From UHGV virus genome UHGV-1374678: a DNA stretch of 64,000 nucleotides; one strand, 5' to 3'. The DNA is from a virus. The translations under genes and the position numbers were made by a program. Under the pieces are notes generated by a model. That model was not told the origin of the DNA. It did no database searches and worked only from the letters and a program-made list of their open reading frames with translations. Shown piece after piece: positions 3,625 through 63,153 of the stretch (position 1 is its first letter; every line of letters starts with the position of its first letter).

Positions 3625-5493
3625 TTAAGACGAACTTAAGTCAATGGTTGCAATAATTGGACACCAAATGCTATTATCTATTAAATTTTCTGGTTCAATT
3701 TCTTCACTTTCAGTAAAAGTAATTTTCTCCGAAATTGTTTCCAAGACTTTTCTTTGATTGCTTTCAGAATCGGTTACTATAACATCACTTGCAACTATCA
3801 ATTTACAATTACTTGACAAATTGTCCTGATTTGGAATTTCCCCGATTAATACAGTACCATTATCACTAACTGTCATTAAAGGGCTTCCTTGACCAACAGA
3901 GGTAACATATGTAATACTTTGCATTTTATCTGTTATAACAAATTCAAAATCATATGACTTTTGATTATCCAATGTAATGAATAAGGCGTTGGAATATGAA
4001 ATTTTAAAATCATTTCCAGAAGTGGAAACTGAAGGAGATATGGCAGTATAGCTTGACCAGCTTCCATTTTGTGTACGATATCTGTATTTTAATGATTGTA
4101 ATGAATTTCTATTTGAAGAAGTGTAAACTCTAGAAATATATCCATCTACTACAAGACTTGTTTCTTTTTCGAAGTTGTTTATACGGGATAAATTTAAGTC
4201 AATTGATGGATTATGATATAAATAAACCTGAAATGATTTTGAAACTAAGTTGCTAATATTCCCTCTTGAATCAACAGCCTCAATATTTATTTTTACAGTT
4301 CCAGGTTGTGAAAATGATCCAAAGTCTAAAGATAAAGTAGAAGAGGACTCTTCAATCTTTTTTAATATCGTAGTTTTATCCGGATCTGTCACTGATACAT
4401 TGTAATAACTAATTGTTGAACTATTTTGTGGAGTAGCTTTCTGTGATTGCGTCAAAGATACTTTTAGGTTTCCATAATAAGTAATCATAGTAGTGCTGTT
4501 GCCAAGCATAGAAATAGATTTAGAGTCGGTATTAGCAAACGTAAAAGTTGACAAAACTGGATTACTATTTGTTACAAAAGCCTTTCCTAAATATTCATTT
4601 GTATATTCTTTTGAATTTATAGTTGTCCCACATATAATTTTGATTTGACATTCGTTTGAATTTGGCGTATTATCAAACATTGTTGTTTTAAAGTTAGTCA
4701 AATCCCATTCATAAGTTTCTTGTTGTATCTCTTTACACTCATCAATTAAATCCCATTCATCGGATAAGTTTTTTTGATATAGTCTAAGAAATGATTTATT
4801 GTTTGAATAATTTGTAAAAGAAAGAGATAATTTTTCTCCAATATTACATGATATTGAAGAATTGTTTATCGACGCAATCGGTTTTGTTTTAAACGTTTTG
4901 TAGGCACTGTCTTTCCATAACTGACTGTCTTTTCTTTTCACACTAATTTTTATTTTATAATCCTTTCCCGGATCCAACCCGGTTACATCAAAAGACAATC
5001 CAGTTAAATATACCCATTGTTTTCCTTCTATCATATATGCCACACTATCACAAGCTGCATCTGCATTCCACGTAATACGGACACTTGTTTGTGTTATATC
5101 CGATAAGGTATAAGTAGTTATGTTTGCATAACGTCCAATTTTTGTCAGAGCAAAAGAACCAGAAGCCGCAAAGGAAGCAGGGGATATACCAGTATAAAAA
5201 CCTCCTGCACAACTAATAGTTTTACTTCCGTCGCTGTTATGTGGTATCTTGAAACTGTAACTTCCTACAGTCCACCAAGTTCCGGCAGGTGTATTATTCC
5301 AATTAAATGTCAAAGAATGATTTCCTGATGCCGTTCCATTACAATTTATATACCAATATGCACTAGAGCTATGTCCAATCATTGCATAATTAGTACGTCT
5401 TATCTGCATTGTTATTGTTACATTAGAATAGTTTTCTTGTCCTCCGGACACATATGTTTCAGAGCATGTAAGTCTGCTTTCCCAATTTGCCAA
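3625..5493 (-). CDS. Tail fibre / receptor-binding protein candidate (622 aa) with FN3-like segment
   Basis: Position after the Tal-like gene. Ser/Thr/Asn-rich beta-type composition. FN3-like stretch (DPGKDYKIKISVKRKD). Confidence 0.45.
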   Translation of the reverse strand: MANWESRLTCSETYVSGGQENYSNVTITMQIRRTNYAMIGHSSSAYWYINCNGTASGNHSLTFNWNNTPAGTWWTVGSYSFKIPHNSDGSKTISCAGGFYTGISPASFAASGSFALTKIGRYANITTYTLSDITQTSVRITWNADAACDSVAYMIEGKQWVYLTGLSFDVTGLDPGKDYKIKISVKRKDSQLWKDSAYKTFKTKPIASINNSSISCNIGEKLSLSFTNYSNNKSFLRLYQKNLSDEWDLIDECKEIQQETYEWDLTNFKTTMFDNTPNSNECQIKIICGTTINSKEYTNEYLGKAFVTNSNPVLSTFTFANTDSKSISMLGNSTTMITYYGNLKVSLTQSQKATPQNSSTISYYNVSVTDPDKTTILKKIEESSSTLSLDFGSFSQPGTVKINIEAVDSRGNISNLVSKSFQVYLYHNPSIDLNLSRINNFEKETSLVVDGYISRVYTSSNRNSLQSLKYRYRTQNGSWSSYTAISPSVSTSGNDFKISYSNALFITLDNQKSYDFEFVITDKMQSITYVTSVGQGSPLMTVSDNGTVLIGEIPNQDNLSSNCKLIVASDVIVTDSESNQRKVLETISEKITFTESEEIEPENLIDNSIWCPIIATIDLSSS

Positions 5494-11551: not shown

Positions 11552-12649
11552 TTATTCACCAACCTTTCGTGATTCTATGTGCTTAAATGTAAAATCTGCA
11601 TTGCCATACAGAAGGATAGAATTATTCCCATGCAAAAGTTGCAACCAGTACATGTAGTCAACGTCGTTTATACCAAGACGGTCATAAGTAATCATTCTGC
11701 CAAGCTCGTCATTAATGGTTAATTTTAAGCAATCCATATATACCGTAAGGTCTTTGTACACTTTCATATATACAAATCCATTTTCAACAATCGAATAAAC
11801 ATGGGTATCCGGCATATAGTATGCGGTGCATTTTGTTTCGACACCGTAAATATCTGTTAGATTAAATTGCACAGCCGTCCCGTCGCATAGACTTACAATG
11901 TCATACGCACCTGATCCGGTGTATTCTAATGTGTAATTATTTTTGGATGCGAATTCTTCCACGGTATCAAGAAGAGAATTAAAGTAAGAATTTGAAGTAG
12001 AAGAGAGTGTCAGTGTTCCTGTGGCTATGATATTTGCATCATTTAGGTTGCAAATATAAATTTCTCCATTTTCATGAGGGTTAATTACAATTGATGGATA
12101 ACAACTGGATTCAAGCTCATCACTGTCATTTGATATAAGGATATTCTTGTAATTTGAAACACTGATTTCATCGACAATTTCATTTGTGTATCCAAATGGA
12201 GTAGTACACCGGAATGTCATTCTTATTCCATATATTGATCCATATGCAACAAAAGTTTCAATATTAGAAAACCATCCGTAATACCGAACAGCATCATCTG
12301 TTTCATTATCATATTCAAAGTTTAACCATTCTGGAAAATGTGATGATGTAAGCCATCTTGTAAGCTCTCTAATATCAGATTTTGTAATTTCCAAATTTTC
12401 CTGTGAATCGTATTTGCAAGGATTCTTCATAATATCTAATTCTATTTCAAGGTTGTCTGACCATTTATCGTAAAATGTATTCGCCTCAACTTTGTATCTG
12501 TTGGAATCTCCAACTTCCATGTCTCTTGCCATTGAAAGAGATACGTCCCCATCTGCATCGAAATCAACTGAAATATAATCTGCTAATAAATTGCTAAATT
12601 TTTCGCTACAAAAAGTAAAATCTTTAAATTTTTTTGCCATTTCTTTCAC
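11552..12649 (-). CDS. Distal tail protein (Dit)-like, 365 aa
   Basis: Position between the tape-measure and Tal genes. Size typical of Dit. Confidence 0.45.
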   Translation of the reverse strand: MKEMAKKFKDFTFCSEKFSNLLADYISVDFDADGDVSLSMARDMEVGDSNRYKVEANTFYDKWSDNLEIELDIMKNPCKYDSQENLEITKSDIRELTRWLTSSHFPEWLNFEYDNETDDAVRYYGWFSNIETFVAYGSIYGIRMTFRCTTPFGYTNEIVDEISVSNYKNILISNDSDELESSCYPSIVINPHENGEIYICNLNDANIIATGTLTLSSTSNSYFNSLLDTVEEFASKNNYTLEYTGSGAYDIVSLCDGTAVQFNLTDIYGVETKCTAYYMPDTHVYSIVENGFVYMKVYKDLTVYMDCLKLTINDELGRMITYDRLGINDVDYMYWLQLLHGNNSILLYGNADFTFKHIESRKVGE

Positions 12650-12702: not shown

Positions 12703-14215
12703 TTATCTGATTTTTTTAAGACCAAGCTTTCTTGCTTCTTGAGTCATTCTTTTATCAATATACTCATATGCATATTCCGCCATTTTTTGTGTTCCAGGGA
12801 ATGTGTCTTTGTCAACATTTCCTTCAACATTAATCAAGCTTCCATAAGTATTTTGAATTGTCATGTTTCCAGAAGAATCTGCTTTCGTATCATTAATCAA
12901 TTTTAAAGTATTGATCATACTATCAACTAACTTATTGGCAGTAACAGAGCTATCAATTTGTGTCTTGTATTTCTGTCCACCAAACATAATGTTTCCATCT
13001 TCATCCAGATGAGCAGAAAGAGCCATTAATTTCTCTGTTTCATTATTTGGAATTACTCCATCACCACGGTGTAATTTTGTAAGCTTTGCACCATCGCTTT
13101 TTCTGACAATAATTTCTCGTTTATTGTCCTCACCAGTCCATGCAAGCTGATCTGCACCAACTCCTAATGTACCGTTTTCATAACCGCTAATCTGTGACAA
13201 GCTAACCCATCCAAGGTTCCCATAACGTCCGTCAGCAGATTTAATATGGATTTTTAAATTTCCAGTATTACGTCCAGTTCCGCCATAATCCTTGCTAGAA
13301 TAACTGTCAATTACAACACCGTTTGGAACACCAGAGTATCTGGTTCCGGCTGGATTCATTCCCCATGAATCGTAGTAATATCTACCAGTAAAGGTTACAA
13401 CATCACCTACTCGTGGGATGCCATCTCCACCAGTGCTAACAGACGGTTTCTTAGCCGGTTTAGGTGGCTCGGGTTTCTTTGTAACGGTAACGGCAATCGT
13501 TTTAGAGATGCCACTGCCATCGGTTGTCGAAACCGTTACAGTACATGATCCAGGCTTAATTGCTTTGATAGTACCGTTTGATGCGGTAGCAACAGCAGTA
13601 TTGCTTGATTTCCAAGAAAGAGTCTTGTTTTTTGCATCATTTGGTCTTATCGTTGCCTTAATTGCTGTAGATTTCCCTTCCTCAAGGGTCACAGAAGTTT
13701 TGTCTATCTTCAGTTCGGCTACCGGACGATTCTCCGTATTCTCTGGAGACATAATATCTTCTGTGATTTTGCCATTTTCAATTGCATTATCTTTAATTGG
13801 ATCTGTAATTGTGCCACTGGCAGAAGAAGAAGGGTTTTTATTTGCATCGGATTGAGATTGAGAAGCGTTGTCTTTTTGAGACTGTGCTCCTTCTTGGGAC
13901 GACATTTGATTTTGATTATTGTTAAAATCGGTGCTTCCGACCCATCCAAAATTGGATATAATAGAATTAATCTTATTATAAGCATCTTGATATTTTCCTA
14001 CAGCCTTATTAAGCATTGAATCGATTATTTCAAGCTGCTTATCTGCATTATGACTAATTTCATATTCCGTATCCTCTAACATCTGTTGGAGGTCATCAGA
14101 AAGCTTGTCGTAGCCTTCGCTCTGCATATCATTTGCATGATCACGTTTTGTGTCGGACAACTCATCTTCAGCAGATTTGAGCTGTTCCTTCAGCTTTTTC
14201 ACTTGTGCTTGAGCA
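12703..14215 (-). CDS. Tape measure protein, 3' exon (C-terminal about 504 aa: coiled coil, Big_2 Ig-like domain, SH3-like segment)
   Basis: ORF has no RBS and only a GTG start, with an in-frame stop 8 codons upstream. N-terminus continues the coiled-coil character of the upstream 2191-aa ORF. Big_2-like stretch TSVTLEEGKSTAIKATIRPND...GSCTVTVST. The junction was inferred from intron P1 and the omega-G position. Confidence 0.55.
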
Positions 14216-15691
14216 CTTAAATTATTTCACTTGTCTTTTCATCCATTCGCTACATGGATGAGAGCATATTAAATACTCCTCATACTTTCATATGAGAATG
14301 GGACTATATCTTCTATTTGAATAAAATTATTTTGAATTTTTGTTTGAAATGTTTGAGATATTTTGGACATTATAAAAGAGCAGTAGTGATTTACTGCTCT
14401 TGGATATTATATCTTTTCATTTTTAGGTTTATATGACGGACTTCGGTAAATTTCAGTTTTACTCTCAAGTTCCGTTTCAAAATGTGTGATTTTATTTAAT
14501 AACAACAATGTACTTTTTGAAGTTCCACGGGTATAATCTGTATAATACTTTTTAAAAAATGAACAACCTTTATGTTCATTTTCAAATTTAGGATAAATTC
14601 TTTCTTTAACAAGGAATAAATAGAATGTTTCTGCATCTACATATTCCAAAAGATAATCTGCAACTATTTCTGTATATTGCGTGTAAAATCGTGGATTGAT
14701 TTTATACATAACATCATTATTTTCTATAATATCTTCTAATAAATATAAATTTGCTATACGTTCTTCAACCTTGTATTGTTCATATTTTAAAGATTTTTTT
14801 AAATATTCAATTTTCAAATCTCCACTTAATATATCTTTAAATATACGTTCTCTATTTGTAGAAGAAAATTTTAAATCATCTAAATGTTGTATTCCTGCTA
14901 AATGAAAGAAGGAATCATATGGAAAGTGAAGCAATAAATTATATTCTTTTCCTTTTCTTCCAAGCTTAATTTCATATGCAACATGTCTTAATTTTGCATA
15001 TTTTACAGCCGCTTCATACAATATGTCTTGTTGCATTTTATCCCCCGTAAACACAAAAGGCTCTGTTTCAAACAGAGCCCTTTTATGTGATGTTTTCTTT
15101 CGGATCTAGCCTAGTCAGATTGTGGACGAACATCAAACCCCATAATGTCAGTATATACCACTTTTCTGACAAAGCGACATATACCATTTGACAACAGACA
15201 CTCAAGTTGCCTGTTTATAACATTGTAAGAAAGACACATATCTTTCTTAACTATATTATAGCCAATTTAAGAGAAAAATGCTACCCAAAAATACTACAAA
15301 AGTACGCATTTTTTATTATGCAAACATTCCAAAACATACGTTCTATTTTACGTGTTATATATATCTTTTCCATTATAATTTGTTTTATTCAAATAGTCTA
15401 TATTTTTCAAGTCGCCAATCGCTTGCGACCCTACATTAAGGCTTACGCCACCCATAAAGGGTTAGTCTCTGAATGTCTTCCGTATCTGTTGACTTAGGAA
15501 GTTCACTGCGTCTGGGAGACTTGCACTCCCGGTTATCCCTAACCTATTTGTTTTTTATGGTTTCTATCTTTCGACTGGTGAGTTTTAAACTCATACCGCA
15601 TTCACGCTTACCGTTTCCAGTTACGTTGTAGCAAAATAGGGTTATGGGGATGTCCCCGCAATTAAATAGATTTTACAGGTGCAATAATTTC
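14216..15691 (-). ncRNA. Group I self-splicing intron (about 1476 nt) interrupting the tape measure gene
   Basis: Read on the minus strand, the 5' exon end AGGUGU pairs with intron GCACCU, giving P1 with a terminal U.G. Hairpin GGGGACAUCCCC follows. Core segment CCUAAGUCAACAGAUAC...CAGAGACUAA (plus 15482-15498 and nearby) is nearly identical to the Tetrahymena/IA-type P7-J8/7-P7' consensus (CCUAAGUCAACAGAUC...CAGACUA). The 5' core is GC-rich in an AT-rich genome. A terminal G precedes the 3' exon. The exon-1 stop codon lies inside the intron. Confidence 0.7.
14407..15054 (-). CDS. Intron-encoded ORF (215 aa); putative homing endonuclease or maturase of an unrecognised family
   Basis: Same-strand ORF wholly inside the intron, with its own hairpin terminator (14372-14400). 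No LAGLIDADG, GIY-YIG or clear HNH motif visible. Confidence 0.5.
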   Translation of the reverse strand: MFTGDKMQQDILYEAAVKYAKLRHVAYEIKLGRKGKEYNLLLHFPYDSFFHLAGIQHLDDLKFSSTNRERIFKDILSGDLKIEYLKKSLKYEQYKVEERIANLYLLEDIIENNDVMYKINPRFYTQYTEIVADYLLEYVDAETFYLFLVKERIYPKFENEHKGCSFFKKYYTDYTRGTSKSTLLLLNKITHFETELESKTEIYRSPSYKPKNEKI

Positions 15692-18600
15692 ACACCTTCA
15701 AGTGCTGCAATCTGAGCTTTTAGGCTGTTAATATCTTTGCTCTGATTTTTGATCTTTTTGTCATAATCGTAATATTCAGCTTTTCTCTGCAAAGCTTCCT
15801 TTCTCTTTGAGATGATTTTATCAAGATATTCAACTTCCGTTGACATTGCATTCTTGTATAAATCAATTAAGGAATCTTGGTACGATTTAACATCTTGTGT
15901 GCTGTCCTGAATACCCTTTCGATATTCTTGTGACTTTTCATTATACTCGTCTAATGAAATAACACCGTTCTGATATAACTCCTGTAACTTTTGAAGTCCA
16001 GTTGTATAATCAGATATCTTTTGTTTCGCATTTCCAAGGCTTTGGGACAGGAGAGCAATTTGTGCCAATCCATCTTCTGTAATTCCGCCTTGTTTATCAA
16101 GAAAAGCATCTTCATTAAGGAGTGCTCTAAATCCTGATAATTCGTCTTCAAGATCAGAATAACTTTGAATAGCCTTTTCTATATTTGTCATACGGAGATC
16201 ATAAATCGAATCCTTAAGATCTTCATTGTCTTTCTGAAGTTTTAGAATCTCTGTATCCGCACTGCTAATTTTATCAGCCAGCTCCTGATATCTTTTTGAA
16301 TTAACATCATAAACAGATTGCTCCTTAAGATATTGGTTTCTTAAATCATACTGTTTTTTAATATTAGCATTGTTATTATCAATTTGCTCCTGATATACAG
16401 TTTCCGGGACTTCTTTATCTTGTGCCTCCAACAAATCAACATATGAACTAAGTTTATCTACTCTACGTGAGAATCCGTCAATAATATTCTGAAGAGTATC
16501 ATAACTAATCTGTCGTAACTGATCCTGCAACTCAATTAATTCAGACGATGCTTTTGTTATATTGGTTGTAAAGTCCTGAATGTTCTTCATGGTATCATAC
16601 CATTGCTCAGAACCTTTTTTCATAAGACCGGAATTCAACTGAGAGTTTACTTCTGCTTGGTAGTCAGACAACTTCTTTGTCAAAGAATCGTAAATTTCAG
16701 ATTGTGTCTGAATCGATTTCTGTATACTGTCTGTATTTTGATGGTTATCAATTGCCGTACCGAGATTTTCAAGAAGAGTGCGGTTTTCTTTAAGACCGTC
16801 TTTTATAGACTCTTTCAGATTCTCTATTGCATCATATTCATCTTCAATAATACTAAGCCTTTTCTCTGCTAATTCTGTTAATTTATCTTCTAAAGTAAGT
16901 ACATTGTCAAGAGCAGATAGATAATTTTCATAATATGTTTTATATTTAGAAATTTTATCATTCAAATCACTGTCTTTAATTGTCTCAATATTTAATGTAC
17001 CATTACGAACTTTAGATGCATATGTCTCGCTTAATCCAACCGCATTTGCGGCATTCAAATATGCTTGGGCTGCTTGTTGGTTAGTTTTGATTTCAGACTG
17101 TACCTTGGAAATAGCATCCGCAGCTTTCACTTGCTTATTCACAAGACCAATCGCCCTGTCAATTGCATCAACTGCTAAATCAGTTATTCTCTTAACTCTT
17201 GAAAGTAAAGTTTCAATCCAATCAATAACATTTTCTGATGCGTCTTTTGATGAACTATCCGATGAGGAATTATTATTAGAAGAGGAGTTGTTATTAGAAG
17301 ATGATTTCTTTTTCTTTGAAGAAGATGTTGCTTTGCTTCCAGAACCACCAGTTCCGAAAGTAACACCGCTAGTACCACCATACCCTGCATGTGCAGTACC
17401 ATGTGCCAAAGCCGTTCCTCGTGAATTAATAAATCCAGAAGAAAGCAGTTGCTTTGTTTGATTTGCATCAAACACAATAGAACCTTGTGGAATACGTGTA
17501 AATTCAGCACCATTGTCACCAACGGTTCGCCATTTACCATTCTTAGGATCAACAACAATTTCTTGTCCTAGTTCACCAACTAAAGAGCCTTCAGATTTTT
17601 TTGTTCTCCAACTAGATTTTAACCAACTTGTATCAGATATATTGCCATTTGCGTAAGCACTTCCGTACATTCTTGGATTGATTGTTCCAAATGTATGTGC
17701 AGTACCAGAAGCACTTGAAGCTCCTTTTTTTACTGCGGATGCAACTTTACTTGCTACATTGGTTTGAGGCATATTTACAGTTGAAGCATAGTATGTGACT
17801 TTTCCTGTTAATGTTGGTGCGGAATTAGGGAATAAAGCCTTTGTATAATTGGCAAGACCATTAATTGTAGGTGCTATCTTAGGATGGTCGCCCATTTCAT
17901 AACTAACTGTACCATCTTCATTTTTTACTTCATCAAGATAATAATTAACACCATCAACATTTGCGATATAAGCAATTTCTCCACTTTCTGTTTTGACAGC
18001 TTCAATCTGAGTTGGTACATTATCGACGTTTGCCGTAAAATATAATTCTTGTCCCGTTTTTAACTGATTGAGCTGTGCTTGAACTTGATCTGTTGTAGCA
18101 TCAACTTTCATATAAATTGTGTTATCATCTGGACGAGATAAAATACCATCAATTTTTGCATCCGCTTCTGTAGTATCAACGTCAACCTTGATCAGCCCCA
18201 TATCTGATAATACATCAACAAATTCATTTAAATACGACGGGTCAATATTCATAGATTGCATTAATGTACTTAATGAATCTTCCATTGCAGAAGTCTGGTT
18301 ATCTGTCAAATCAATTGACTTCAATTGTTGTTCAGAATAATCCTTAAGAGAACTAAGAGATGCTTTTTGTGCTTCGTCCCCAAGATAAAATTGATCCTGT
18401 ACAAGATGTAGGGCTTCAGCATATCTATTGGCTTGCTCTACAGAATCTTCTCCATAATAAGTTCTTATTTTAAGACCGTCAGTATCTTCTCCACCATTTA
18501 AAAGTTCTTGTGCATAACTTTTTAATTCTTCCGGGCTATACACATCTCCATTTGGTAAAATAGGAGTTACGACAATTGTTTTATCCCCTGCTTCATTTGA

Positions 18601-21600
18601 GAATCCACTTGTATACACAGTTGCAGTAGAATCTTCTGGAACGTCCCAACCGACATCGTTCATATACTTACCAGAAACTTCAGGTCTATTTGTTAAATCA
18701 ACATTTCCTCTTTCTGTAGTTACTTCAACCGTTGCTTTTTTACCTTCTGTTTTATTGATGGCATTATCAACAGTTGAGTCAAATTTAGATGTATCTGCAT
18801 CAACCGTCATAGTTCCAGAAGTATTGTCAACTTTCTCTTTAGTTTCTTGAGTCTTCTGATCTACCTCTGTTGTATCGGCTTTGTAATGATAGATTCCATC
18901 AAAACTTTTATAAAGTTCTACCTTTTTCCCGTCTTCAAATTCTGCATAGTAATGAATTTCACCATCGATTCTTTGTCCCGAAATTACAGATGACTTAGTT
19001 GTTGTTTTCCCGTTCTCGTCAGTAAATTGAACATCGCCATTAAAAGTAATAGTCTGTCCCTCTTTTAGATTGTCTATTTGTGCTTGGATCTGAGAGAAAT
19101 CTGCATCCGCTTTCATGACAATTAATAAATCATCTGAATATGCAACACCCATCAAATCATTTAATGCTTGTTGCTTTTCAATCTCAAGAGTTGCAATTAT
19201 CTCTGGATCCATATTCTCAATAGTGCTCAGAACACTTTCTTGACTAGACGGATCAATCCCAAGGTCAGTCAGCATCTGTGGGTCTGCATTTTTAATGGTT
19301 TCGTATAAAGTCTTAACTTTATTCTCCGCATCTGTAGTATCAATGTCTATCCCAACGCCTTTTAATGTTTTTTGTCTTTCAAGTTCGTATTTAGCCTGAG
19401 AAAATTCTTTAAGGCTATTTAAAAGATTTGCAGAATCGTTCTTGAGATTTGCAAAATTAACTCCACTATATTTACTTTCGGTAAGAGACTGTTTTTGAGC
19501 ATATAATGCATTAATAGAATTGATCATTGCCTGAGAAGAGCTGTCATTAAATGACTTTCCTTTACCGTTGAGCTTTTGGTTACTTAACAACGCTTTTTGA
19601 ACAAGGGCAATTTGATCGTCAAGATTTTGTTGATTTGTTGAATCAAAATTGATTGTTGCGTCATTAATTCCATGTGTTTTTGCATAGCCCATAGAATATT
19701 TATTAACCAAATTTTGTGTTGTTCTAATAGTTTTTTGTGCTTGCTCTTTAAGTTCATCGGCATTATTTAAGTCCACATCGATACCAATGACTTTATTCGA
19801 TATTTTATCAAGTTCTTCTTCTGCATTTACAATATTTAAATTAGCATCTAGCTCGATACCATTCTCATTTGCAATTTTCTGAATCTCTGTTTCGAGTGCT
19901 TTTGCAACTTCGTCTGTGTCTGTTCCATACGCTTTGGTAGATTTAATTCTATCTCTTTCAGTAAGCAGGGTAGTAATCTGTTCTTTTCCTTGTTTAATCT
20001 TTTCAGCATACTCATCTGCGGAGTGTTTTGCTAACTGTTCTGTAGCAGAGCGTGTTTCTGCTAAATCATTCTGTAATGCAGCGATTTCATTTTTCTTTTG
20101 TGTAATAGCTGTGTTGTCAGCACCAGTGGCTTGCAACTCAGCTAACTCAGCCTGTGCCTTTGCAATTTTCGAAGATAAGTCTGTAATTCTTTCAGCACCG
20201 TCAGCTACAGATCCAACAAAATTATTATGAGCACCATAATCTTCCAATCTGCCAAACATGTCCATGAACCAATCAAAGCTCATACCCATATCTTTAGCAG
20301 CGTCAGTTATGTCTCCAATGTTGTATGTCCATTGTTTACTTCCATCAGCGAGTGCTTGAGAAGCTGCGTATCCCTTTTTCTCTAAATCTGTTAAGAAATT
20401 CTGAACCCCTGTTGCATCTTCTGTCATATATCTTGCTGCTTTGTTATAATTTTCTGCAAAATTTACAGCATCATCAGCACCAGTAGGAGAGAAGTATGCA
20501 GCCCTGGTCTTAAAATCATCTGTGCCAATAAGACCTTTATCAAAGGCTTCTTTTGCTTCTGTCAGATATGTAACACCTTTTACATAATCGTCCCCAGCAT
20601 TTGCGGATTCGTCAGCAGCATCAATTGCAGAAAAGGCACTGTTGTCTTTTAAGTCAATGGCAGTAGCTCCGGCTGCAATCGTATCTTCTATTTTCTTCTT
20701 AAGCTTATCAAAATCATAGCCAACTTCGTCCGCATTGTCACTCATGACAATATCATATGCGGTATTTATCTCTTTGATATTGAGATCGTTTATAGCGTCT
20801 CCAAACTTTTCTTTTAAGACTTTTGTTTTGTCAGAAACTTCTTCTGTCAATTGATCTAACCCGAATATTGTCTTGAAAGAATTTTGTGCCTCCTTATCAT
20901 TCGGGAAGGCATCATCTAAAGCCTTGCTTATTGCGTATTTATAATTTTCAAGATGTAGATTGTCAGGATTGATATTTAATAAATCAGCAATTTTTTCTTG
21001 AGCTTCTGGTTTAAGATCATTCATTGGCTCTATAAACTCAGAATATATGAAACTTGTAATATCTCCATCATAATCATCCATGATAGTATCGATATCAAAG
21101 TCAAAGTCACCAAAATTAGTTGTGAATGCATTTTGTAATTTGGAATCCAAAGATGTAAATTCTGTTGAAGTTTGTAAATATTTCGATACAGAATCACTCA
21201 AAGATTTAAACTGTTCTTTTATTAAAGAATTCTTCTCTTGAACTTTTTTCTTATCTTCGTTAATTTGTTGAGTAAGCTTTTCTTCAGAATTAATTTTGCT
21301 CTCCTCTAACACTTTACTGAGTTCCTTCGCAGTATCTTTGTTCATTGGAGTGGAATAGGTTAATAACCCTGTTTTTTCAGAGTATGTTGACGCAGGAGTC
21401 AAACCGTGTTTCTTTAATACTTTAAGTAGGTCGTTACCTTTAACAAGTGTTGGATCAAAAGAAACCGATTGTTTCTTAAAAATATTTTTATCATTAGCTC
21501 TTTCTGAAATTGCTTTTATTGCATTTTCTTTTTTTTCTATTGAATTTTCAAGATCTGTTCTATCATTAGAATATACTTTAATTTGTTCTTTAATTCCATC

Positions 21601-22248
21601 AAATGCATCTTGCAAATCTTCTCCAATTTTAATATGGGAAGAGTTTAAAGAAGCGTCATACAATTCGTTTAAAGATTTTGCAGCAGTGGCTGCATTGTTT
21701 CCAATATTTAAAATTGCATTTCCCTGTGCGTCATAACCTGCAACTATTTCCGGGAATACATTAGCTAATTGATTCGACGTATCAATATAAGATTGATAAT
21801 CTTCATCGCTTAACAACTTGTTAGAATTATCTGAGTTTACGCCTTCTTTTAATTCGGCATACTTTTTAGCAACTTCATCAATTGCATCCCCAGTGCTTTT
21901 TATTTCTTCTGGATTTTTTGCAAAACTTTTCCCAAGATTTTCTATAGAATTTTTATTTTCAGAAAAAGTCTTGAAAGTAGAGTCAATGGAAGCCTTTGCC
22001 TCCTCTCCTTTTTCAATTAGTTTTTCTGACCGATGAATATAATCATCAATTAATTCTATTCCTTTAGTTATTATAGCGGAAGCAGCCATGCTAATTCCAA
22101 AACTTGCGATTGAAGAGACAAAAGTTCCTGCAAAATTTTTCACGCCAGTTTTTAATTTTGACATGGTAGAAGAAAATTTGCTTTGAGAACTTGTTGCTTC
22201 TTCTGTAGCAACTTGAAATTCACTATAACTGATTTTCCCTTCTTTCAA
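15692..22248 (-). CDS. Tape measure protein, 5' exon (about 2185 codons)
   Basis: Giant coiled-coil ORF with an N-terminal hydrophobic segment (FAGTFVSSIASFGISMAASAIIT), a Gly/Ser-rich low-complexity segment, and position before Dit/Tal. Annotated TTG start at 22246-22248. The reading frame stays open a further 93 codons upstream. Confidence 0.65.
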
Positions 22249-22548
22249 TGCCTTTGCCGAATCGACAAGCTTTTTATCAACATCCCCAAGCGATTTTCCA
22301 AGCGCTGCCGTTGTAATATTAAGTGGTTTTTGTTGTAAGTTTTCTAGATTTGTTCCGCCTTCTGTTACAGAAGAAATTAATTTGCCAAAACTGCGATTTG
22401 CTTTTATTTGGTTTTCAGATTTTGGCGTAAATAAATTAGAAAAAATAGAACTAAAACCGTTTTCTTTGTCATAGCTTAAAATCGTTTTTTTAATTGATAT
22501 AATTATATTACTTGCAATAATATATTATTTGAAAATGGAGGAGAGTTT

Positions 22549-23004
22549 ATGAATATCAAATACTGTCCAGAATGTGCGAAATGTAAAAAATCAATAGAAG
22601 ATCCTGAAGATTTTTATGCTGGATATCAAGTCTATTTTTTTCAAGATAAAATTGGGAAAACATGTCAAATTTGTAACAAGGATACGTTAATAGAAACAAA
22701 CATAACTGAAGATGAGCTTCATGAAATAGGAGAAGCGTCAAACTATAATCCTTCTTTTCTCAAAGCCATGCGTGAACTCAAAGAAAAAGACATCATAGAA
22801 TATGAACTTAAAATGTCACAGTTCCGGTCACAAGTCGAACAGAAAAACAAAGCAAGAGAAGAAGCAAATCGTCCGAGGTGTCCGAAGTGTGGTTCTACCT
22901 CAATTGCAACGACAACTCGTGGTTACTCATTTTGGACAGGATTTGTCGGCTCTGGTAAACCAATGAACGTGTGTCAAAATTGTGGTCATAAGTGGAAGAT
23001 ATAA
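22549..23004 (+). CDS. Zinc-ribbon protein (151 aa; four CxxC pairs)
   Basis: GGAGGAG RBS. CPECAKC...CQIC...CPKCG...CQNCGHKW. Confidence 0.55.
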
Positions 23005-23296
23005 CACGAATATTTTATCCAAAGCACAAATACGCTCTTGTTTTTTTGCTAACTGCTTTTGATAAATATAAGTTTTCTTCATAAAAATATCACCTACTTT
23101 AAAAATATTTATTTTTAGAACGTTTGCAACATTTGTTCCTGTGTTCATTTTCAAGAACCTTACACCTACGGTTGTATTCTTTAACATAAGAAGCAGGGAT
23201 ATAGTTTGTATCTTCTATTGGCTTGCTTAATTCTACCATATAACCTATTAACATTTTTTCAATATTACAAATAAAGACCATCTCCTTTAAGAAAGT

Positions 23297-24061
23297 GTGA
23301 TATGTATGGATAAAAATATATTAAAAATCTACGGATTAACTGGTGCGTATTGTAAATTTATGGGAATTACTAAAATGCCAAAATTTAAAGTAAAAACATT
23401 TAAAGGTGGAAATGCATCTGCGTATATTTCCTATCAAAATAATTCTCAAATATTTAATATAGAAGAAAACTATATTAATGTTTTAAAACAAAACGCACTA
23501 CCTCTTATTTATCATGAATTTACTCACATTGTAGATAACGAAAGTTTTCTTCCAGAAGTGAGTGCAAAAACAAAAATTCCATTCATAAAAATGTTATCGG
23601 AATATAGAGCTATTCAAGTTCAAATGAAAATAAGCATGAATTTTGAAATCTATAATGAAGATAAAAAGTTTTCATTTGATGATAAAACACATGATTGGTT
23701 TGAAGAAAAAACCGTAAAAGAAGATATAGTATATAAAACTGAAGATTTTGTTGCAACGATAAAAAATCTTTTAAGTAAAAAAGAAAATAATTATACTTAT
23801 TTTTTAGTTCTACATTGTGTGTATTACCAGAGCATGTGTGATTTTTGGAAAGAATATTGTATTAATGAAGTTCAACATCTATTAAAAGAAGATATAATAA
23901 ATACTTTATTTGGATTAGAATTTGATATTTTCCATCATATGTTATCAAAAATAGATAACAAAGATATAAATTATTTTAAATTACTGTTATCATCTCAGAA
24001 TAAAATGGTCGGATATTTTGGATTATATGAAGACGAAATCATAAAAACATTAAGCGTATAG
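23297..24061 (+). CDS. Hypothetical protein (254 aa)
   Basis: ORF in the plus-strand accessory block. Confidence 0.45.
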   Translation: MICMDKNILKIYGLTGAYCKFMGITKMPKFKVKTFKGGNASAYISYQNNSQIFNIEENYINVLKQNALPLIYHEFTHIVDNESFLPEVSAKTKIPFIKMLSEYRAIQVQMKISMNFEIYNEDKKFSFDDKTHDWFEEKTVKEDIVYKTEDFVATIKNLLSKKENNYTYFLVLHCVYYQSMCDFWKEYCINEVQHLLKEDIINTLFGLEFDIFHHMLSKIDNKDINYFKLLLSSQNKMVGYFGLYEDEIIKTLSV

Positions 24062-24334
24062 AAATAAATTATTCTTAATGTACAGCGAAAAGTGATATCT
24101 GTCGGGAAGAAGATCAAAGGATCTATATTGTTTGGTTTATTCAGCAACGATGCTAAAAAACAAATGAGATGCAAGGATTGTGGATATAAATTTTAATCAA
24201 ATAAATGTGCAATCGTATAGCAAAATAATTTTATCCTTAAAAGTAAAATTGACATTCTTTTCTTTTTTACTTCTTTTGAGTAAACATAATTATCTTTCAA
24301 AATAAAATCACCTACGCTTTCTGGAGGAATGAAT

Positions 24335-24496
24335 ATGACAAACGAAAATAACAAAAGTATAAAGCAAACTACAGCAGATAAAAACAAGCAAAAAGATACT
24401 CGTAAACCATTACCGAAAGCTAATATAATTGGTAAACGCTTAGAGATATTTAACATGGATTTAAATGTTATATACAAGAAGAATAAGAAAAAATAG
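24335..24496 (+). CDS. Small basic hypothetical protein (53 aa)
   Basis: ATG at 24335 preceded by a GGAGGAA RBS. The ORFs on the opposite strand here look spurious. Confidence 0.35.
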   Translation: MTNENNKSIKQTTADKNKQKDTRKPLPKANIIGKRLEIFNMDLNVIYKKNKKK

Positions 24497-24692
24497 CATT
24501 TTACTTAGTTTTTTATACTTTTGGTTTCTTTCCATGCAGCAAATGCCATTCTACATTTTTTGAATTCTTGATCTGCAATTTTGTCTTGTTTTTTATTAAA
24601 ATCATCACATATTTTTTGCTGCTTAAAGGAAAGACAGAATATTTCTTGTCGCATTCCTATAATATGTGCTTTTGGCAAAGGAGATTTTTTTA

Positions 24693-25223
24693 ATGAGTTC
24701 ATATAACGATATCCTTTCTTTTGAAAATGACTACTACAAAGAATTATATTACGATGGTGCAAAACAGAGAGATAGGATAAATAGTAAATTTACACCAACA
24801 ATAACATTATTAACTGCTGAAACATCTGGAATCATTTGGATTATCTTCAATTTAGTGAAGAAGATGAAGTCGTTTAATTTTATATCAATTACAGCAACAA
24901 TAATCTTGTGTTTTATAATTTTATTTGGGTTAGTAGCTCTTGTGAATTTTTTATTTTGTTTTTTAAAATATGGCTTTCTATATCCAAAACCAGCCGATGT
25001 GAAAAATTTTATTAAAGAAAATAAAACATATATTGGTGAATATACAGAAAAAGAGATTGTTGATAATATTGTAGAACAAATTTCTTCTGAATATATTACA
25101 ATGGCAATTAAAAATAATAAAGAAATAAATAACAGGTCAAAATATCTGAACAAGTGTTACATAGGAATTGTGTACACGTTGTTATTTATGATTATTGAAT
25201 TCCTAATATTATTATTTATGTAA
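24693..25223 (+). CDS. Membrane protein (about 176 aa, multiple TM helices)
   Basis: AAAGGAGA RBS before the ATG at 24693. Hydrophobic segments. Confidence 0.45.
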   Translation: MSSYNDILSFENDYYKELYYDGAKQRDRINSKFTPTITLLTAETSGIIWIIFNLVKKMKSFNFISITATIILCFIILFGLVALVNFLFCFLKYGFLYPKPADVKNFIKENKTYIGEYTEKEIVDNIVEQISSEYITMAIKNNKEINNRSKYLNKCYIGIVYTLLFMIIEFLILLFM

Positions 25224-25328
25224 AAGTATAATAAAATATAATTGTTTTATTAAGTAAGAACGCTAAAAACAAAATTTGAACGTAAGGATTGTGGATATAA
25301 GTGGTAGGAGAACATGGATGTTTTTGAA

Positions 25329-25541: not shown

Positions 25542-25566
25542 CTGCCTTTCAAAAAATGGAGAAATT

Positions 25567-26031: not shown

Positions 26032-26241
26032 AGTGACTTTACTATTGAAACTAATAATGTAATTACTGAAATAATCATTGACAAGTTTTGGTATTTTTCT
26101 GAAAGCTTCAATAGTGGCATAAAAATTTTATCATTAATAAAATCAGACATGTTATTACCTCGAAACAAAAGAATGGCATTGTAATAGCTGTGGAAGTGAC
26201 TTTTAAATCAATAAAAGACACCGATTAAGGTGTCTTTTAAT

Positions 26242-27628: not shown

Positions 27629-27631
27629 TAC

Positions 27632-29203: not shown

Positions 29204-32185
29204 TTAAAAACTATGACGTTTACCTCCACCTTTACTTTTTAAAGATGCTACAGCAGATATTGTACCTATGATTGCTGGTATTCCACCGAATGTATCAACA
29301 ATTTGTGTTAATACTTTTAAAAATTCATTTGCACCTTCAACAGCAGTTTTAAAAAGATCAGAGCCTAAGAAGCTTGTTGAAAAATCCTGAAACGTACCTT
29401 TGATTTGCTCGATACTATATTCAATACCTTTCTTATAATTTTCCAACTCTTTCTCTGCTGATCCAGATGAATTTTCTGCTGTTTCATAAGCACTCTTAAT
29501 TACGTCTACATTATTAATAGCGGCTGCGAGTGCGTTTGACTGATTCTTACCAGCCAATGTTTCGAGCAAGTCTGCTCGATTAATATCTGAAAGGCTTGAC
29601 CACCTTTCACCGATTCCTACAACAATATCATAGATATCTTTATAGGTATCTTTATCCTGCATGATGTCAAAGCCACCTGTCAGTGCTTTGACTTTTGCTT
29701 GTAATTTTGAGGTTGAGGTTATAAGACCATCTGTGTCCTCGTTCATCTCACTAAGCTCAGACTCTGAACCTCTAAGTCTGGCACTAACCGTTTTCCACAT
29801 ATTACCGACCTTATCTGGATCCTGTAATGTAGTATTGGTTCCAGTAATCAAAGCAATTGACTTTGATAAACTTGTATGACTCGCATTAAATGACGCAGCA
29901 CTTCTCTGTAAAGCGTCACCAATTCCATCACTTCCGATTGCGAAATTATTTGCTACCTCATTAAGTTTATCCACAATCGATTCTGCTTGCGAAGCCTGCA
30001 TATTATAACCCTGAAGGATTGATACAAGACTTTGCGATGCAGTTTCTTGAGTCATGTTATCTCCGACTCGCTGATACAATGTTGTTGCATCAGATGATTT
30101 CTTAGCGTCTTCAAGATTATAACCCAATTTTGACCAGTCAGCAGTACTGCTAATTACGTCACTGACTGTCGCACCATATTTTTGTGCACTTGCAGTTGCT
30201 TCATCCCAGTAATTTTTCAATTCTGTATCAGAAGCATTGCTTACTTTTCTTAATTCAATCTGTGCAGCATTAACTTCCCTTACTGCACTAACAACTTTGG
30301 ATGGGAACTGCATCATTGTATTCTGTAATATATAATACATCCCGGTAAACTGAGCAATCTGTCCAAAAGCACGCTTCATATCTGCCCATGTAGAAGACCC
30401 TGTTAGACCTTGAGATTTAATCTCTGCTTGCAACTGCTTTGCTTGGCGAGCTGCATCAGCCTGATCCCCTTTTGTCTGAGCATTAGCCTTCGCTTGATAA
30501 ATGGATTCCATCCGATCTTTGTATTTTGACCATGCTTTAGTATTGCTGTTCATATAAGCTCGGAACTCATTTGCGTCCTTTTGTGCCTCGCCTTTCCCAA
30601 GCGTTTTAGACTCCACTTGTTTTACTTCTTGCAAAGCATTCTTATACTTAGTTACTGATTTTTCAAGGTTTTCATAAAGAGAAGAAACATGTGACGTATC
30701 TATATTTTCCGCTGTTAATGCACTTGTAATTTCTGTTTGATACGCATTTACTTGCTTTGCCAATGAACGAAGTTTTTCTAAATGGGTGCTCGACTGACCA
30801 GTATATTTACTAAGTTCAGTTTCCATCGTTGTTGTTCTAAGACTGAACTCCCCAGACTCTGCCTTGTCTCTAATGGAAGATAGTTTGGTCAACGCTTCTT
30901 TGCGTTGCTTTACCTCTACCATAACTGCACTTAGTTCTTTATCTACAGACTCTTTGCCAGATGAAGTTAATCCGTCAGTATATTTCCCCTGAATCTTAGT
31001 CAAACTTTCTGACTGAGCCTTTGTCATAAATTCAGAATATTCTTTCTGGAAATTGGCAATCTTTTCCCTTGCTTTATCGAGAGAAGACATATTCAAGGAT
31101 TTTTCCATGGTAGACTCTACAGTACCCATAGAAGCCTCAAAAGCCTTCGTAGCAGCAGTTAAATTATTAAATTCTCTTTCAATTTCTCCTAGGGAAGCAC
31201 CTGTAGAAATCAGGCTTTTAAGACGATTTTGCGAATCAAGAATTTTCTGACTCCAATCTTCTGCATTTGTCAAATCAGAAGATGTTTGTCCAGAATAGTT
31301 AGAAATACGATTTTCTCTTTTTGCTCTCGATGTAGTTATAGCTTCGTCTGTTACCAAAGCTTTTGCTTTTTCTCTAATGGAAGATAATTTGGTGTTTTCA
31401 GCAGCCATCAAAGAGTTCTGTCGTTTTGTGTAAGCATCATGTTCGGCTTTTGCTGACTTGTCCATATCAGCGATCCATTTTTCCTGTTCAGCCTTTTGAG
31501 CTTCGTGATATGCTTTTTGTGTAGCAAGACGATTCTTTTCTGCTTGGTTTTCCTTTGCCTGCTGTCGAGCTTCTACACCCATTTCATAATCAGATTTAGC
31601 ATTTCGATAAATACGTGCTGATCGATTTTCGTATTCGTCGTTATAAAATCCACGATCTTTTGCTTCTTTAAGATATTTTCTTCTGTCGAGAATAGATTTT
31701 TCTAAATCAGCCATTCTTGCTTTTGTCTGTTGATATTCTTCTGGCTTAACATTCCCTTTTGATACCTTCGTCTTTAACTGATAATATTCTGTTATTTCTT
31801 TATTTAAGGCACCGTATTCTTTTTTTAAATTAATAACTTCTTTCTCAGAAGTAGTTACTCCATTAACAGTCTTTATGTTCTTTCCGTTAGAGTATGTTGT
31901 GTCTGTGACAGTTTTATCTCTCCCTTTGGTTATAGTTGTCTTGTCAATATTCTTAGATTGTTTATCTACATTTTTTCCACCTTGATTATTGCCAAAAGCC
32001 TTTCCTAAATTAATAGAGTTTACAGATTTCGCTAAATTCAAAAGCTGTGAATTATCAATTTTAATAGGAATAACAATTTCTGTTTTTGCAAATTTTTGTA
32101 AATCTTCAATAGCAGATTTTGCACTTTTTGCCTGTTCAATTAACGTTTTCGCAGAACCAGTAATATCTATTTTATAACTAGCCAT
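29204..32185 (-). CDS. Tape-measure-like giant coiled-coil protein (993 aa)
   Basis: Alpha-helical Ala/Lys/Glu/Gln-rich sequence throughout. C-terminal hydrophobic segment FGGIPAIIGTISAVASL. Lies downstream of the tail tube and small chaperone-sized genes. Confidence 0.5.
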   Translation of the reverse strand: MASYKIDITGSAKTLIEQAKSAKSAIEDLQKFAKTEIVIPIKIDNSQLLNLAKSVNSINLGKAFGNNQGGKNVDKQSKNIDKTTITKGRDKTVTDTTYSNGKNIKTVNGVTTSEKEVINLKKEYGALNKEITEYYQLKTKVSKGNVKPEEYQQTKARMADLEKSILDRRKYLKEAKDRGFYNDEYENRSARIYRNAKSDYEMGVEARQQAKENQAEKNRLATQKAYHEAQKAEQEKWIADMDKSAKAEHDAYTKRQNSLMAAENTKLSSIREKAKALVTDEAITTSRAKRENRISNYSGQTSSDLTNAEDWSQKILDSQNRLKSLISTGASLGEIEREFNNLTAATKAFEASMGTVESTMEKSLNMSSLDKAREKIANFQKEYSEFMTKAQSESLTKIQGKYTDGLTSSGKESVDKELSAVMVEVKQRKEALTKLSSIRDKAESGEFSLRTTTMETELSKYTGQSSTHLEKLRSLAKQVNAYQTEITSALTAENIDTSHVSSLYENLEKSVTKYKNALQEVKQVESKTLGKGEAQKDANEFRAYMNSNTKAWSKYKDRMESIYQAKANAQTKGDQADAARQAKQLQAEIKSQGLTGSSTWADMKRAFGQIAQFTGMYYILQNTMMQFPSKVVSAVREVNAAQIELRKVSNASDTELKNYWDEATASAQKYGATVSDVISSTADWSKLGYNLEDAKKSSDATTLYQRVGDNMTQETASQSLVSILQGYNMQASQAESIVDKLNEVANNFAIGSDGIGDALQRSAASFNASHTSLSKSIALITGTNTTLQDPDKVGNMWKTVSARLRGSESELSEMNEDTDGLITSTSKLQAKVKALTGGFDIMQDKDTYKDIYDIVVGIGERWSSLSDINRADLLETLAGKNQSNALAAAINNVDVIKSAYETAENSSGSAEKELENYKKGIEYSIEQIKGTFQDFSTSFLGSDLFKTAVEGANEFLKVLTQIVDTFGGIPAIIGTISAVASLKSKGGGKRHSF

Positions 32186-62232: not shown

Positions 62233-63153
62233 TTAAACTTTATTATATTTGATAATATAAGATGAAAATTCTAAATCATTAATTATATCATCGTCAAAAA
62301 TTAATCTATAATCTAATAGATCAGCCATTTTTTGAGTCTCAGTTCTTGAGTCTTCCATACTGTTCCATTTCATCATACCCAATGATTTTTGATATTTTCT
62401 TTCTAAATAAATAGTTTTATTTTTATAAATATAATTATGGAAAACTTCTGCTGATTTTTTTGAAAACGTTTTTAATTCAAAACATTTTTTATGATCAAAT
62501 GAAACAATTTTATAAGATGGAATATTTGCTTCTTTTGCAATAAATTCTAATATCTCTTTCGTTCCTAAGATACTATAGCTATATGTGTAATTATGTGGAT
62601 AAAAACAAACACATCCATCACCATCAAAATATCCACGAATAAAATGACTAAGTAATTCTTTTGGAATTGTCGTTGGTGGTTGTAATATTAATGATTTGTT
62701 TTCAAAACATCCGTGAGATATCAAATCATTAACCATTTTTATTGATGATACATATGCTCGATATGCATAGTATTCTTTTTCATTTAACTTAACAACTTTA
62801 TTCGAAATTGGAGCAGTTGATTCTATATCATCTAAAAAATTTTGAATATGATATTTGTCTCTTTCTTGCAAACACAACTCAACCGATCCGCCTTTTTCAT
62901 GTCCACTTTTATCATGTTTTTTGCAAACATAGCCATCTGCATACAAAAAACCTAACCAATAAGCCTTTTCTTCCGTATCAATAATTTTAAAAAAGTTTTC
63001 ATTAACTTTATTTTTTCTTGACGCAGACAAATAATCATGATTTTTTAATTTGTTATGTGGTCTAACACCATATCCGAGCGTCTTTAAATATTTCGATACT
63101 TTATCAGCTTTTGTATTAATTGCTTTTGCAATAACACTATATGTTTCTGCCAC
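62233..63153 (-). CDS. LAGLIDADG-family homing endonuclease (double-motif, 306 aa), free-standing
   Basis: Two LAGLIDADG-type motifs: WLGFLYADGYV and IRGYFDGDGCV, about 100 aa apart. Confidence 0.6.
   Translation of the reverse strand: MAETYSVIAKAINTKADKVSKYLKTLGYGVRPHNKLKNHDYLSASRKNKVNENFFKIIDTEEKAYWLGFLYADGYVCKKHDKSGHEKGGSVELCLQERDKYHIQNFLDDIESTAPISNKVVKLNEKEYYAYRAYVSSIKMVNDLISHGCFENKSLILQPPTTIPKELLSHFIRGYFDGDGCVCFYPHNYTYSYSILGTKEILEFIAKEANIPSYKIVSFDHKKCFELKTFSKKSAEVFHNYIYKNKTIYLERKYQKSLGMMKWNSMEDSRTETQKMADLLDYRLIFDDDIINDLEFSSYIIKYNKV

Follow-up and report, generated by a model that had tools for sequence, protein, structure and literature searches.

The virus genome UHGV-1374678 contains a tail tape-measure gene that lies in pieces within the 64,000-nucleotide (nt) stretch analysed here (the window). 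Our comparisons support the view that one interruption of this gene is a group I intron, IA-like and predicted to be self-splicing, whose removal would restore a single reading frame. The loop closed by the intron helix P8 holds a drum RNA and a gene for a predicted ribonuclease (RNase) of the PBECR4 family, and drum and PBECR4 together are a conserved two-part module. The best explanation of the whole, which we hold with good confidence, is an intron running from 15691 to 14228 in the tape-measure gene that carries the drum–PBECR4 cassette as P8-loop cargo. The interruption and all the tail genes noted lie on the minus strand:

15692..22248, minus strand: upstream exon, the middle piece of the tape-measure gene (open reading frame list, PHROG 4211 and homology to locus L160)
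14228..15691, minus strand: predicted group I intron, 1464 nt, with G15691 as first nucleotide and G14228 as omega-G
12703..14227, minus strand: downstream exon, first base A14227, in which the coiled-coil sequence goes on and is followed by a Big_2 Ig-like domain
11552..12649, minus strand: next gene, a DUF6558 tail protein (Pfam PF20195 and PF20753)

The 2191-amino-acid open reading frame (ORF) at 15673..22248 (minus strand) matches the tape-measure family PHROG 4211 in a profile search, and its frame stays open upstream to about 22524. Gene order also identifies the split gene as a tape measure, because it lies just upstream of the distal tail genes: the DUF6558 distal-tail-like gene comes next and is followed by a minor tail protein gene. 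A preliminary description of this interval had proposed that a group I intron splits the tape-measure gene, a claim now borne out by covariation, homology to an intron of Staphylococcus phage MarsHill, intron-less alleles and the PHROG and Pfam matches. Its account of the flanking frames also holds. The 2191-amino-acid ORF stops 18 nt into the intervening stretch, as seen in the sequence and the ORF list, and the 499-amino-acid ORF downstream (12703..14202, minus strand) continues the coiled-coil sequence from a GTG start only, without a ribosome-binding site (RBS) and with an in-frame stop eight codons upstream (UGA, 14229..14227). This second ORF carries the Big_2 Ig-like domain, and the homology of exon 2 starts upstream of its GTG. 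The stretch had also been called GC-rich, which fits its 5′ 310 nt (G+C content 40.7%, that of the window as a whole being 32.9%).

When U15692 is joined to A14227, the frame stays open for 2693 amino acids and reads ...AALEGV|NNLSAQAQVKKL... at the junction (GV|NNLSAQAQ); this predicted product is of the same length as intron-less relatives. The ligated exons are predicted to read GCACTTGAAGGTGTAAATAATTTAAGTGC and to contain AAAUAAUUUAAG, with the intron inserted at GAAGGTGT|AAATAATT. Relatives found by a search with the spliced junction peptide mostly cover the exon-1 part only (59%) or the exon-2 part only (39%), and on the contigs of these split relatives the same site is occupied by a homologous intron. 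Seven proteins (P0001, P0004, P0005, P0006, P0042, P0104 and P0118) are continuous over the junction, with 10 residues between ALEG and KKL. An empty site is present in locus L164 (contig OGLM01000261.1), which reads GAAGGGGT|AAATAATTTAAG with nothing between and is 99.2% and 92.7% identical to the exons around the intron of locus L010. The empty site coincides with the exact predicted ligation point, within a 3-nt AAA ambiguity. Further intron-less alleles are found in L021, L024 and L025.

The preliminary description ended the intron at G14216, which it took to be the sole G in phase, and expected a protein of about 2690 amino acids. The in-frame stop before exon 2 occupies 14229..14227, so G14228, 12 nt upstream, is also in phase. 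An intron spanning 15691..14216 would join GGUGU|UGCUCAAGC (giving GCACTTGAAGGTGTTGCTCAAGC) and yield ...ALEGV|AQAQVKKL... in a product of 2689 amino acids that is open and in the right phase. A junction there would, however, delete four residues, leaving the product four short of every uninterrupted homologue, and would put the P10 partner AAUAAUUU inside the intron. Nor could this site be used in L002, L003, L005, L008, L012, L017 or L020, where the matching base is A, whereas UG|AAAUAA is kept in all same-site introns; the empty-site allele L164, moreover, keeps AAATAATTTAAG. Splicing after G14216 is therefore highly improbable. The in-phase UGA, the match to 2693 amino acids, a normal P10 and the empty site all favour G14228, and the L164 allele settles this as the predicted 3′ splice site. 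The intron thus has a terminal omega-G, and its in-frame ligation matches the intron-less alleles. Of the comparison with intron-less homologues that had been proposed as a check, the single continuous frame stands and the junction after G14216 does not. By analogy with group I introns, exogenous guanosine would attack after U15692, and the freed exon would then attack after the omega-G.

The predicted ribozyme comprises the following elements:

15677..15697, minus strand: P1, exon AGGUGU (15697..15692) with guide GCACCU (15682..15677) and a U.G pair at the 5′ splice site
15683..15690, minus strand: P10 5′ strand AAAUUAUU (intron nt 2-9), whose partner is exon-2 AAUAAUUU (14226..14219)
15383..15670, minus strand: 5′ ribozyme core, from P3 to the P8 5′ strand
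15396..15383, minus strand: P8 5′ strand CUAUUUGAAUAAAA, the 14-base-pair complement of UUUUAUUCAAAUAG
14326..14313, minus strand: P8 3′ strand UUUUAUUCAAAUAG, the 14-base-pair complement of 15396..15383, in a helix that covaries
14312..14301, minus strand: J8/7 and P7 3′ strand (P7′), AAGAUAUAGUCC, which fits the Rfam RF00028 consensus GAAGAUAUAGUC; P7 covaries
14229..14300, minus strand: P9, P9.1 and P9.2 hairpins and the 3′ tail to omega-G, with 8 pairs changed on both sides

Within the 5′ core, P3 (UCUAU) is followed by P4 (UUGCG/CGCAG), P5, P5a, the P5b module (15631..15602), P5c, an extra hairpin and P6. After P6 come the J6/7–P7 5′ strand GAGACUAA (15469..15462), P7.1, P7.2, a GUCGC/GCGAC hairpin and P3′ (AUAGA). 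P8, of 14 base pairs, closes a loop of 1.06 kilobases (kb), and the P7 3′ strand lies 1.16 kb from the 5′ strand. P10 has 8 base pairs in the window and adjoins the guide; its register shifts by one in relatives. There is no P2, and P7.1 and P7.2 lie between P7 and P3′, a position that points to subgroup IA, judged by the hallmarks of that subgroup and not by a classifier.

We assessed this structure, written from the window sequence, in an alignment of 10 distinct same-site introns from which the P8 loops had been removed. Paired cells amount to 92%, compared with 87.4% in shuffled alignments and 35-45% when the partners are slid. Pairs changed on both sides number 33, compared with 9.4 +/- 2.4 after shuffling (0 of 500 shuffles reach 33) and 1-7 after sliding. 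Compensated changes fall in P1, P3, P5a, P5b, P5c, P6, P8, P9, P9.1 and P9.2, in the GUCGC/GCGAC hairpin and in the extra hairpin that separates P5′ from P4′; in P7 they affect the distal pair, which is G-C or A-U and spans a bulged base. P1, which has the AGGUGU/GCACCU pairing and terminal U.G given in the preliminary description, is paired in 100% of cells, with one pair changed on both sides (U-A, G.U or G-C at that position). The core is present as a P3/P7 pseudoknot, P4-P6 and P8, with both-side changes in P3 (2), P7 (1), P6 (2) and P8 (6); P3 and P7, whose fold had been named as a check, both covary across the 10 introns. RNAalifold, which cannot draw pseudoknots, finds 12 helices unaided, including P9, P9.1 and P9.2. 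Helix 5 (P5) was mis-registered by one column in the covariation test.

Some helix assignments differ from those first made. The core segment CCUAAGUC...CAGAGACUAA is present at about 15497..15461, but it is P6, J6/7 and the P7 5′ strand rather than P7-J8/7-P7′; its CAGACUA is presumably the counterpart of Tetrahymena C262-A268, by our own count of that sequence. The GGGGACAUCCCC hairpin is likewise present, at 15657..15646, but its reading as P2 was rejected after comparison with the introns of L010, MarsHill and Listeria phage LPJP1. It is more likely to form J4/5 and the P5 5′ strand, the weakest of our helix calls, P5 being invariant. ACCCUA/UAGGGU was also considered as P3 and dropped, as it overlaps the covarying GUCGC/GCGAC hairpin; the Rfam alignment pointed instead to UCUAU/AUAGA, which covaries. 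The Ocean-VII RNA motif matches weakly (12.8 bits) at 15510-15546 (minus strand), over AGGGAUAACCGGGAGUGCAAGUCUCCCAGAC, which spans the P5′ strand, the extra hairpin and P4′. The motif could in turn represent part of the group I introns of marine phages.

Several results weigh against an active intron. P4, P5 and P7.1 never vary among the aligned introns, leaving P4 and P5 without covariation support. The cargo includes two sense-strand terminators, which should limit how far transcription reads through into exon 2 and the tail genes beyond it. The scan with Rfam RF00028 (Intron_gpI), which had been suggested as a check, gives no match in the window at the gathering score of 50 bits, and none was found in the related loci scanned at that score. 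Only the two halves are matched, in E-value mode, with P1, Q, R and S aligned. The 3′ half scores 26.1 bits (14279..14403); this alignment misreads the cargo terminator hairpin as P1, and only its J8/7-P9 part is meaningful, comprising GAAGAUAUAGUCC and a GAAA-capped hairpin (J8/7-P7′-P9). The 5′ half scores 14.7-18.2 bits (15360..15701) and aligns P1, the P element AAUUGCG, the Q element CGCAG, P6 and UUCAGAGACUA (J6/7-P7). We attribute the low scores to the 1.06-kb P8 insert, which the model cannot bridge.

These points could be taken to mean that no splicing occurs and that the 2191- and 499-amino-acid ORFs are separate genes flanking an accessory-gene island (moron) with a decayed ribozyme between them. 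The internal terminators, the failure of any match to reach the Rfam gathering score and the annotation of most database relatives as two proteins (59% or 39% coverage) would fit such an arrangement. A decayed ribozyme would not, however, be expected to retain 33 compensated positions that keep its helices paired, which indicates that the RNA structure is under selection. The reading phase is preserved in all 10 same-site variants, exon 2, which has neither an RBS nor an ATG, shows homology that starts before the GTG, and the intron-less alleles are single ORFs. We give separate genes almost no credence.

The preliminary description missed the drum RNA and the 209-amino-acid ORF within the interval. 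The P8-loop cassette runs in the order promoter-like sites, 109-nt drum RNA, intrinsic terminator, RBS, PBECR4 gene and second terminator:

15085..15193, minus strand: drum RNA (Rfam RF02958), 51.8 bits against a gathering score of 43, model positions 1-112, full length
15049..15079, minus strand: intrinsic terminator between drum and the ORF, stem 15079..15059 followed by UUUUGUGUUU, found by scan, with a fold of -20.4 kcal/mol
14407..15036, minus strand: cargo gene for a 209-amino-acid PBECR4-family predicted RNase, with ATG at 15036 and RBS GGGGGA upstream
14371..14400, minus strand: second terminator-like hairpin after the cargo gene, AGAGCAGUA...UACUGCUCU followed by a U tract

The promoter-like sites (15400..15372 and 15250..15222) are no commoner than in shuffled sequence. 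The drum RNA exceeds its gathering score and has a terminator after it. The cargo ORF is open for 215 codons (14407..15054), of which the protein takes 209 from ATG 15036, and it matches PBECR4 (PF18813) with E = 6e-19 (69.6 bits against a cut-off of 27). PBECR4 is the only Pfam match; the protein has no PHROG, PADLOC or endonuclease match and no homing-endonuclease domain, and no homing-endonuclease ORF of the LAGLIDADG, GIY-YIG, HNH, His-Cys or PD-(D/E)XK types is present in the window intron. The AlphaFold model is confident (pLDDT 94.4), and RegB is among the structural matches. H45, D54, S82 and R93 never vary among 46 PBECR4 homologues, and S159 hardly does. PBECR domains have a predicted active site made up of a His in the N-terminal helix region and a C-terminal Ser/Thr (Iyer et al. 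2017, PMC5512222), which H45 and S159 fit. The cargo protein thus shares the Pfam PBECR4 match and the predicted active site with the PBECR domains of phage polyvalent proteins (PMC5512222), but it is a solo protein of 209 amino acids paired with an RNA and not a domain of a giant injected protein.

The association of drum with PBECR4 extends well beyond the window. The same-site intron of L008 encodes a PBECR4 protein 31% identical to that of the window, with a drum RNA (71 bits) just upstream. We then surveyed PBECR4 homologues from five further clusters (26-71% identity; 12 loci); in 12/12 loci a drum RNA (51-86 bits) precedes the gene on its own strand, with 40-55 nt between the end of drum and the start codon. 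Drum and a terminator lie just upstream of PBECR4 in 14/14 loci from seven independent lineages. A terminator hairpin and then an RBS stand between drum and PBECR4 in all seven lineages, with a different stem sequence each time. The surveyed loci include phage contigs and plain chromosomal settings, for example between transporter and oxidoreductase genes or beside flagellin; in L149, L153 and L155 the pair stands alone between housekeeping genes on bacterial chromosomes.

In L155 (2343-3791) and L156 (45-1493), with flagellin adjoining, there are three drum copies per PBECR4 gene, one upstream and two downstream (81-86 bits); several RNA copies per toxin gene recall repeat-type antitoxins. 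In other gut phages (L146-L148 and L152) the drum–PBECR4 pair is a neighbour of tape-measure or tail genes and not an insert in them, and it is found together with Spo0A_C, DUF2513 and zinc-ribbon genes resembling those of a 6.7-kb insert in the window described below. Weinberg et al. (2017, PMC5737381) reported 3′ terminators for drum RNAs and called the association of these RNAs with a protein encoded nearby 'compelling'. The window drum agrees with that account in its full-length match above the gathering score, its 3′ terminator and its tight link to one protein family; it differs in lying in a group I intron loop, with Pfam PBECR4 as partner in a fixed upstream, same-strand layout.

Other introns at the same site hold different cassettes in the P8 loop:

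L017: ToxN/AbiQ (Pfam, 5.8e-43; PADLOC AbiQ), downstream of a 34-nt repeat (2.9 copies) and a terminator
L002 and L020: NYN nuclease (PADLOC candidate HEC-09)
L001: DUF3990 protein with weak PARP similarity (PADLOC PDC-M13B), with an overlapping 70-amino-acid ORF
L005: 172-amino-acid protein without family assignment
L010: 500-amino-acid zinc-ribbon protein resembling ORFs in other introns of the family

The layout in L017 is that of canonical type III ToxIN, and the zinc-ribbon protein of L010 may be an endonuclease. L017 and L005 agree over intron nt 1-583 (93%) and over the final 154 nt (100%) and differ in the middle; L017 and L008 have nt 1-394 and the final 163 nt in common. Because the flanks are shared and the middles differ, cassettes are exchanged within a constant intron scaffold. 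The intron may offer a harmless landing site in an essential late gene, where recombination would exchange the cassettes. The NYN cassette of L002 has an apparent short leader RNA before the RBS (5040-5160), with a terminator-like hairpin GGGAGGAAGU...ACUUCCUC followed by a U tract, and the 172-amino-acid cassette of L005 and L013 perhaps has a short leader RNA before its RBS too (intron nt 540-727). None of these leader regions in L002, L005 and L013 matches an Rfam family. There are hints here that an RNA–terminator–nuclease layout is general in the P8 slot.

The drum–PBECR4 cassette resembles the type III systems (ToxIN, AbiQ/antiQ, CptIN and TenpIN) in its order of promoter, antitoxin RNA, leaky terminator, RBS and endoribonuclease gene, and in its occurrence as a small stand-alone module in phages, plasmids and chromosomes. 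The order RNA gene, terminator and endoribonuclease gene is found in the window and six other lineages, the RNase activity being predicted, and the slot itself holds a genuine ToxN/AbiQ cassette with 34-nt repeats in L017. By this analogy drum and PBECR4 could be an obligate pair working like a type III toxin–antitoxin or abortive-infection system, to which we give slightly less than an even chance. PBECR4 RNase would be the toxin, held in check by drum RNA made in excess from upstream of a leaky terminator. Somewhat more tentatively still, drum, a widespread structured RNA that has been an orphan since 2017, may be the cognate RNA antitoxin or obligatory subunit of PBECR4 in a new, non-repeat, type III-like class, with the P8 loop as an exchangeable defence slot. 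The match to known type III systems is imperfect: known antitoxins are tandem arrays that the toxin cuts into units, whereas drum is a single folded RNA of some 110 nt, and PBECR4 has the BECR fold without a ToxN match (PBECR4 only in Pfam, none in PADLOC). Counting against a toxin–antitoxin role are the lack of tandem repeats in the window cargo, in which drum is a single structured unit, the lack of a PADLOC model matching PBECR4, and the proposal that PBECR domains attack host or CRISPR RNAs in an offensive role (Iyer et al., PMC5512222). Our searches of the literature on drum RNA function, on PBECR4, on ToxN with introns and on type III toxin–antitoxin systems with BECR, whose coverage was incomplete, returned nothing on the drum–PBECR4 arrangement.

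The main rival to the toxin–antitoxin interpretation is an offensive or regulatory RNase that cuts the RNAs of the host, of rival phages or of CRISPR systems, or early mRNAs in the manner of T4 RegB, with drum as a cis-acting leader or small RNA. Such roles are those proposed for PBECR domains (Iyer et al. 2017, PMC5512222), RegB also appears in the list of structural matches, and the constant position of drum directly upstream with a terminator would also fit an attenuator-type leader. A function in phage takeover would nevertheless make little sense for the chromosomal pairs L149, L153 and L155; the two extra drum copies downstream of the gene in L155 show that drum is not only a 5′ leader, and the same slot holds ToxIN/AbiQ in L017. 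We consider this rival unlikely, though it deserves more weight than the proposal that drum and PBECR4 are intron mobility machinery, an RNA–protein nuclease that cuts intron-less tape-measure alleles. The position of the cargo, in the loop where related introns carry HNH, GIY-YIG or LAGLIDADG genes, and the wide spread of the intron at one site could be read in that way. However, the BECR fold is that of RNases that need no metal, searches of the cargo gave no DNA-nuclease domain, the module also occurs outside introns, and the sister cargoes ToxN, NYN and DUF3990 are not DNA endonucleases either. A homing role for the cargo is unlikely, and mobility machinery of this kind very much so.

The intron belongs to a wider family marked by its P5b module, CUACAACGUA...AAGCGUGA (also CUACAACGUAAC-GNRA-...AAGCGUGA), which occurs once in the window where none is expected by chance. 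The module is present in more than 120 IMG/VR stretches and in Listeria phage LPJP1, Bacillus, Serratia and Pseudomonas EL-like phages and MarsHill; the MarsHill copy is within the gene for RNA-polymerase beta, annotated there as exons joined over an intron. In our phage collection UHGV-1374678 has no close relative, and matches are limited to the P5b module and the Ig-domain. A 38-39-nt stretch of the intron here (UUUGCUACAACGUAACUGGAAACGGUAAGCGUGAAUGCG, 15602-15631) is 95-97% identical to sequences of Pseudomonas EL-like and Serratia jumbo phages, a striking conservation of one peripheral module across distant hosts. Loop ORFs in the wider family are of the usual homing-endonuclease types (HNH, GIY-YIG, LAGLIDADG and AP2-HNH).

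The window intron shares with phage IA introns (T4 td, nrdB and sunY, SPO1 DNA polymerase, Twort orf142 and MarsHill) the P1 U.G, the P3-P8 and P4-P6 domains, the P7.1/P7.2 insertions, J8/7 AAGAUAUAGUC, omega-G and an ORF in a peripheral loop, and its P5b module is about 80% identical to those of the MarsHill and Listeria LPJP1 introns. It differs from them in lacking P2, in having the extra hairpin between P5′ and P4′, and in its loop cargo, which is an RNA gene and an RNase-fold gene with their own terminators rather than a homing endonuclease. Tourasse and Kolsto (2008, PMC2504315) described group I introns that occupy three positions in the tape-measure gene of Bacillus cereus-group prophages. 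The kind of host gene is the same, and the window's relatives are also interrupted at several sites, whereas the phages here are of another lineage, known from human-gut metagenome contigs, with one cluster named Dorea longicatena. The likeness is one of description, and toxin-type cargo goes unmentioned in the passage drawn on here. A tape-measure intron alone is thus not new; the cargo is the new part.

The tape-measure gene probably extends upstream through a second interruption of about 6.7 kb. The 993-amino-acid ORF at 29204..32185 (minus strand) covers PHROG 4211 positions 64-948 and the 2191-amino-acid ORF positions 969-1565, and homology of the latter to L160 starts at about 22485, well upstream of its TTG, where there is no start codon. 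The insert (22490-29206) has genes on both strands, including DUF2513, an XRE-type helix-turn-helix (HTH) protein and a zinc-ribbon/HTH protein. Its first 520 nt or so are non-coding, near-identical in L160 and fold better than shuffled sequences (z = -3.9); this element has no Rfam family in an E-value scan and no blastn match in the phage collection. A junction-spanning search found no homologue across the 6.7-kb junction, and the insert could be a giant intron or reflect a two-gene tape measure. If all pieces are joined, the tape-measure protein would exceed 3,700 amino acids. Among relatives, L158-L161 (IMG/VR) have interruptions of about 2.1 kb and 0.54 kb in the N-terminal tape-measure piece, and L001 has a 336-amino-acid ORF between two tape-measure pieces (1290-2749). 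In phages of this group the tape-measure gene has the look of an intron hot spot.

Elsewhere in the window we found a RAGATH-18 RNA (RF03064), an orphan structured RNA, at 63214-63286 (minus strand; 75.5 bits, full length), adjoining the ORF at 62233..63153, and a tRNA gene at 56548-56620 (minus strand; 58.7 bits) in the phage late region.

For annotation, these results mean that one ORF of at least 2693 amino acids should be called in place of two genes. Drum RNA gains a precise partner and layout, upstream of PBECR4 on the same strand with a terminator between. In a literature search of incomplete coverage we found no group I intron reported to contain a drum RNA or a toxin–antitoxin or defence cassette, which amounts to absence of evidence only. 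In the same-site introns described here the loop holds toxin- or defence-type cassettes with their own promoter-like sites and terminators instead of homing endonucleases, and the swapping of cassettes between near-identical introns suggests that an intron can give accessory conflict genes shelter within an essential gene. If drum is indeed the RNA antitoxin or subunit of PBECR4 and the loop a defence slot, the P8 slot in the tape-measure genes of large gut phages would take drum–PBECR4, ToxIN/AbiQ, NYN/HEC-09 and DUF3990/PDC-M13 alike, and through self-splicing a phage could keep conflict genes within an essential structural gene and exchange them there.

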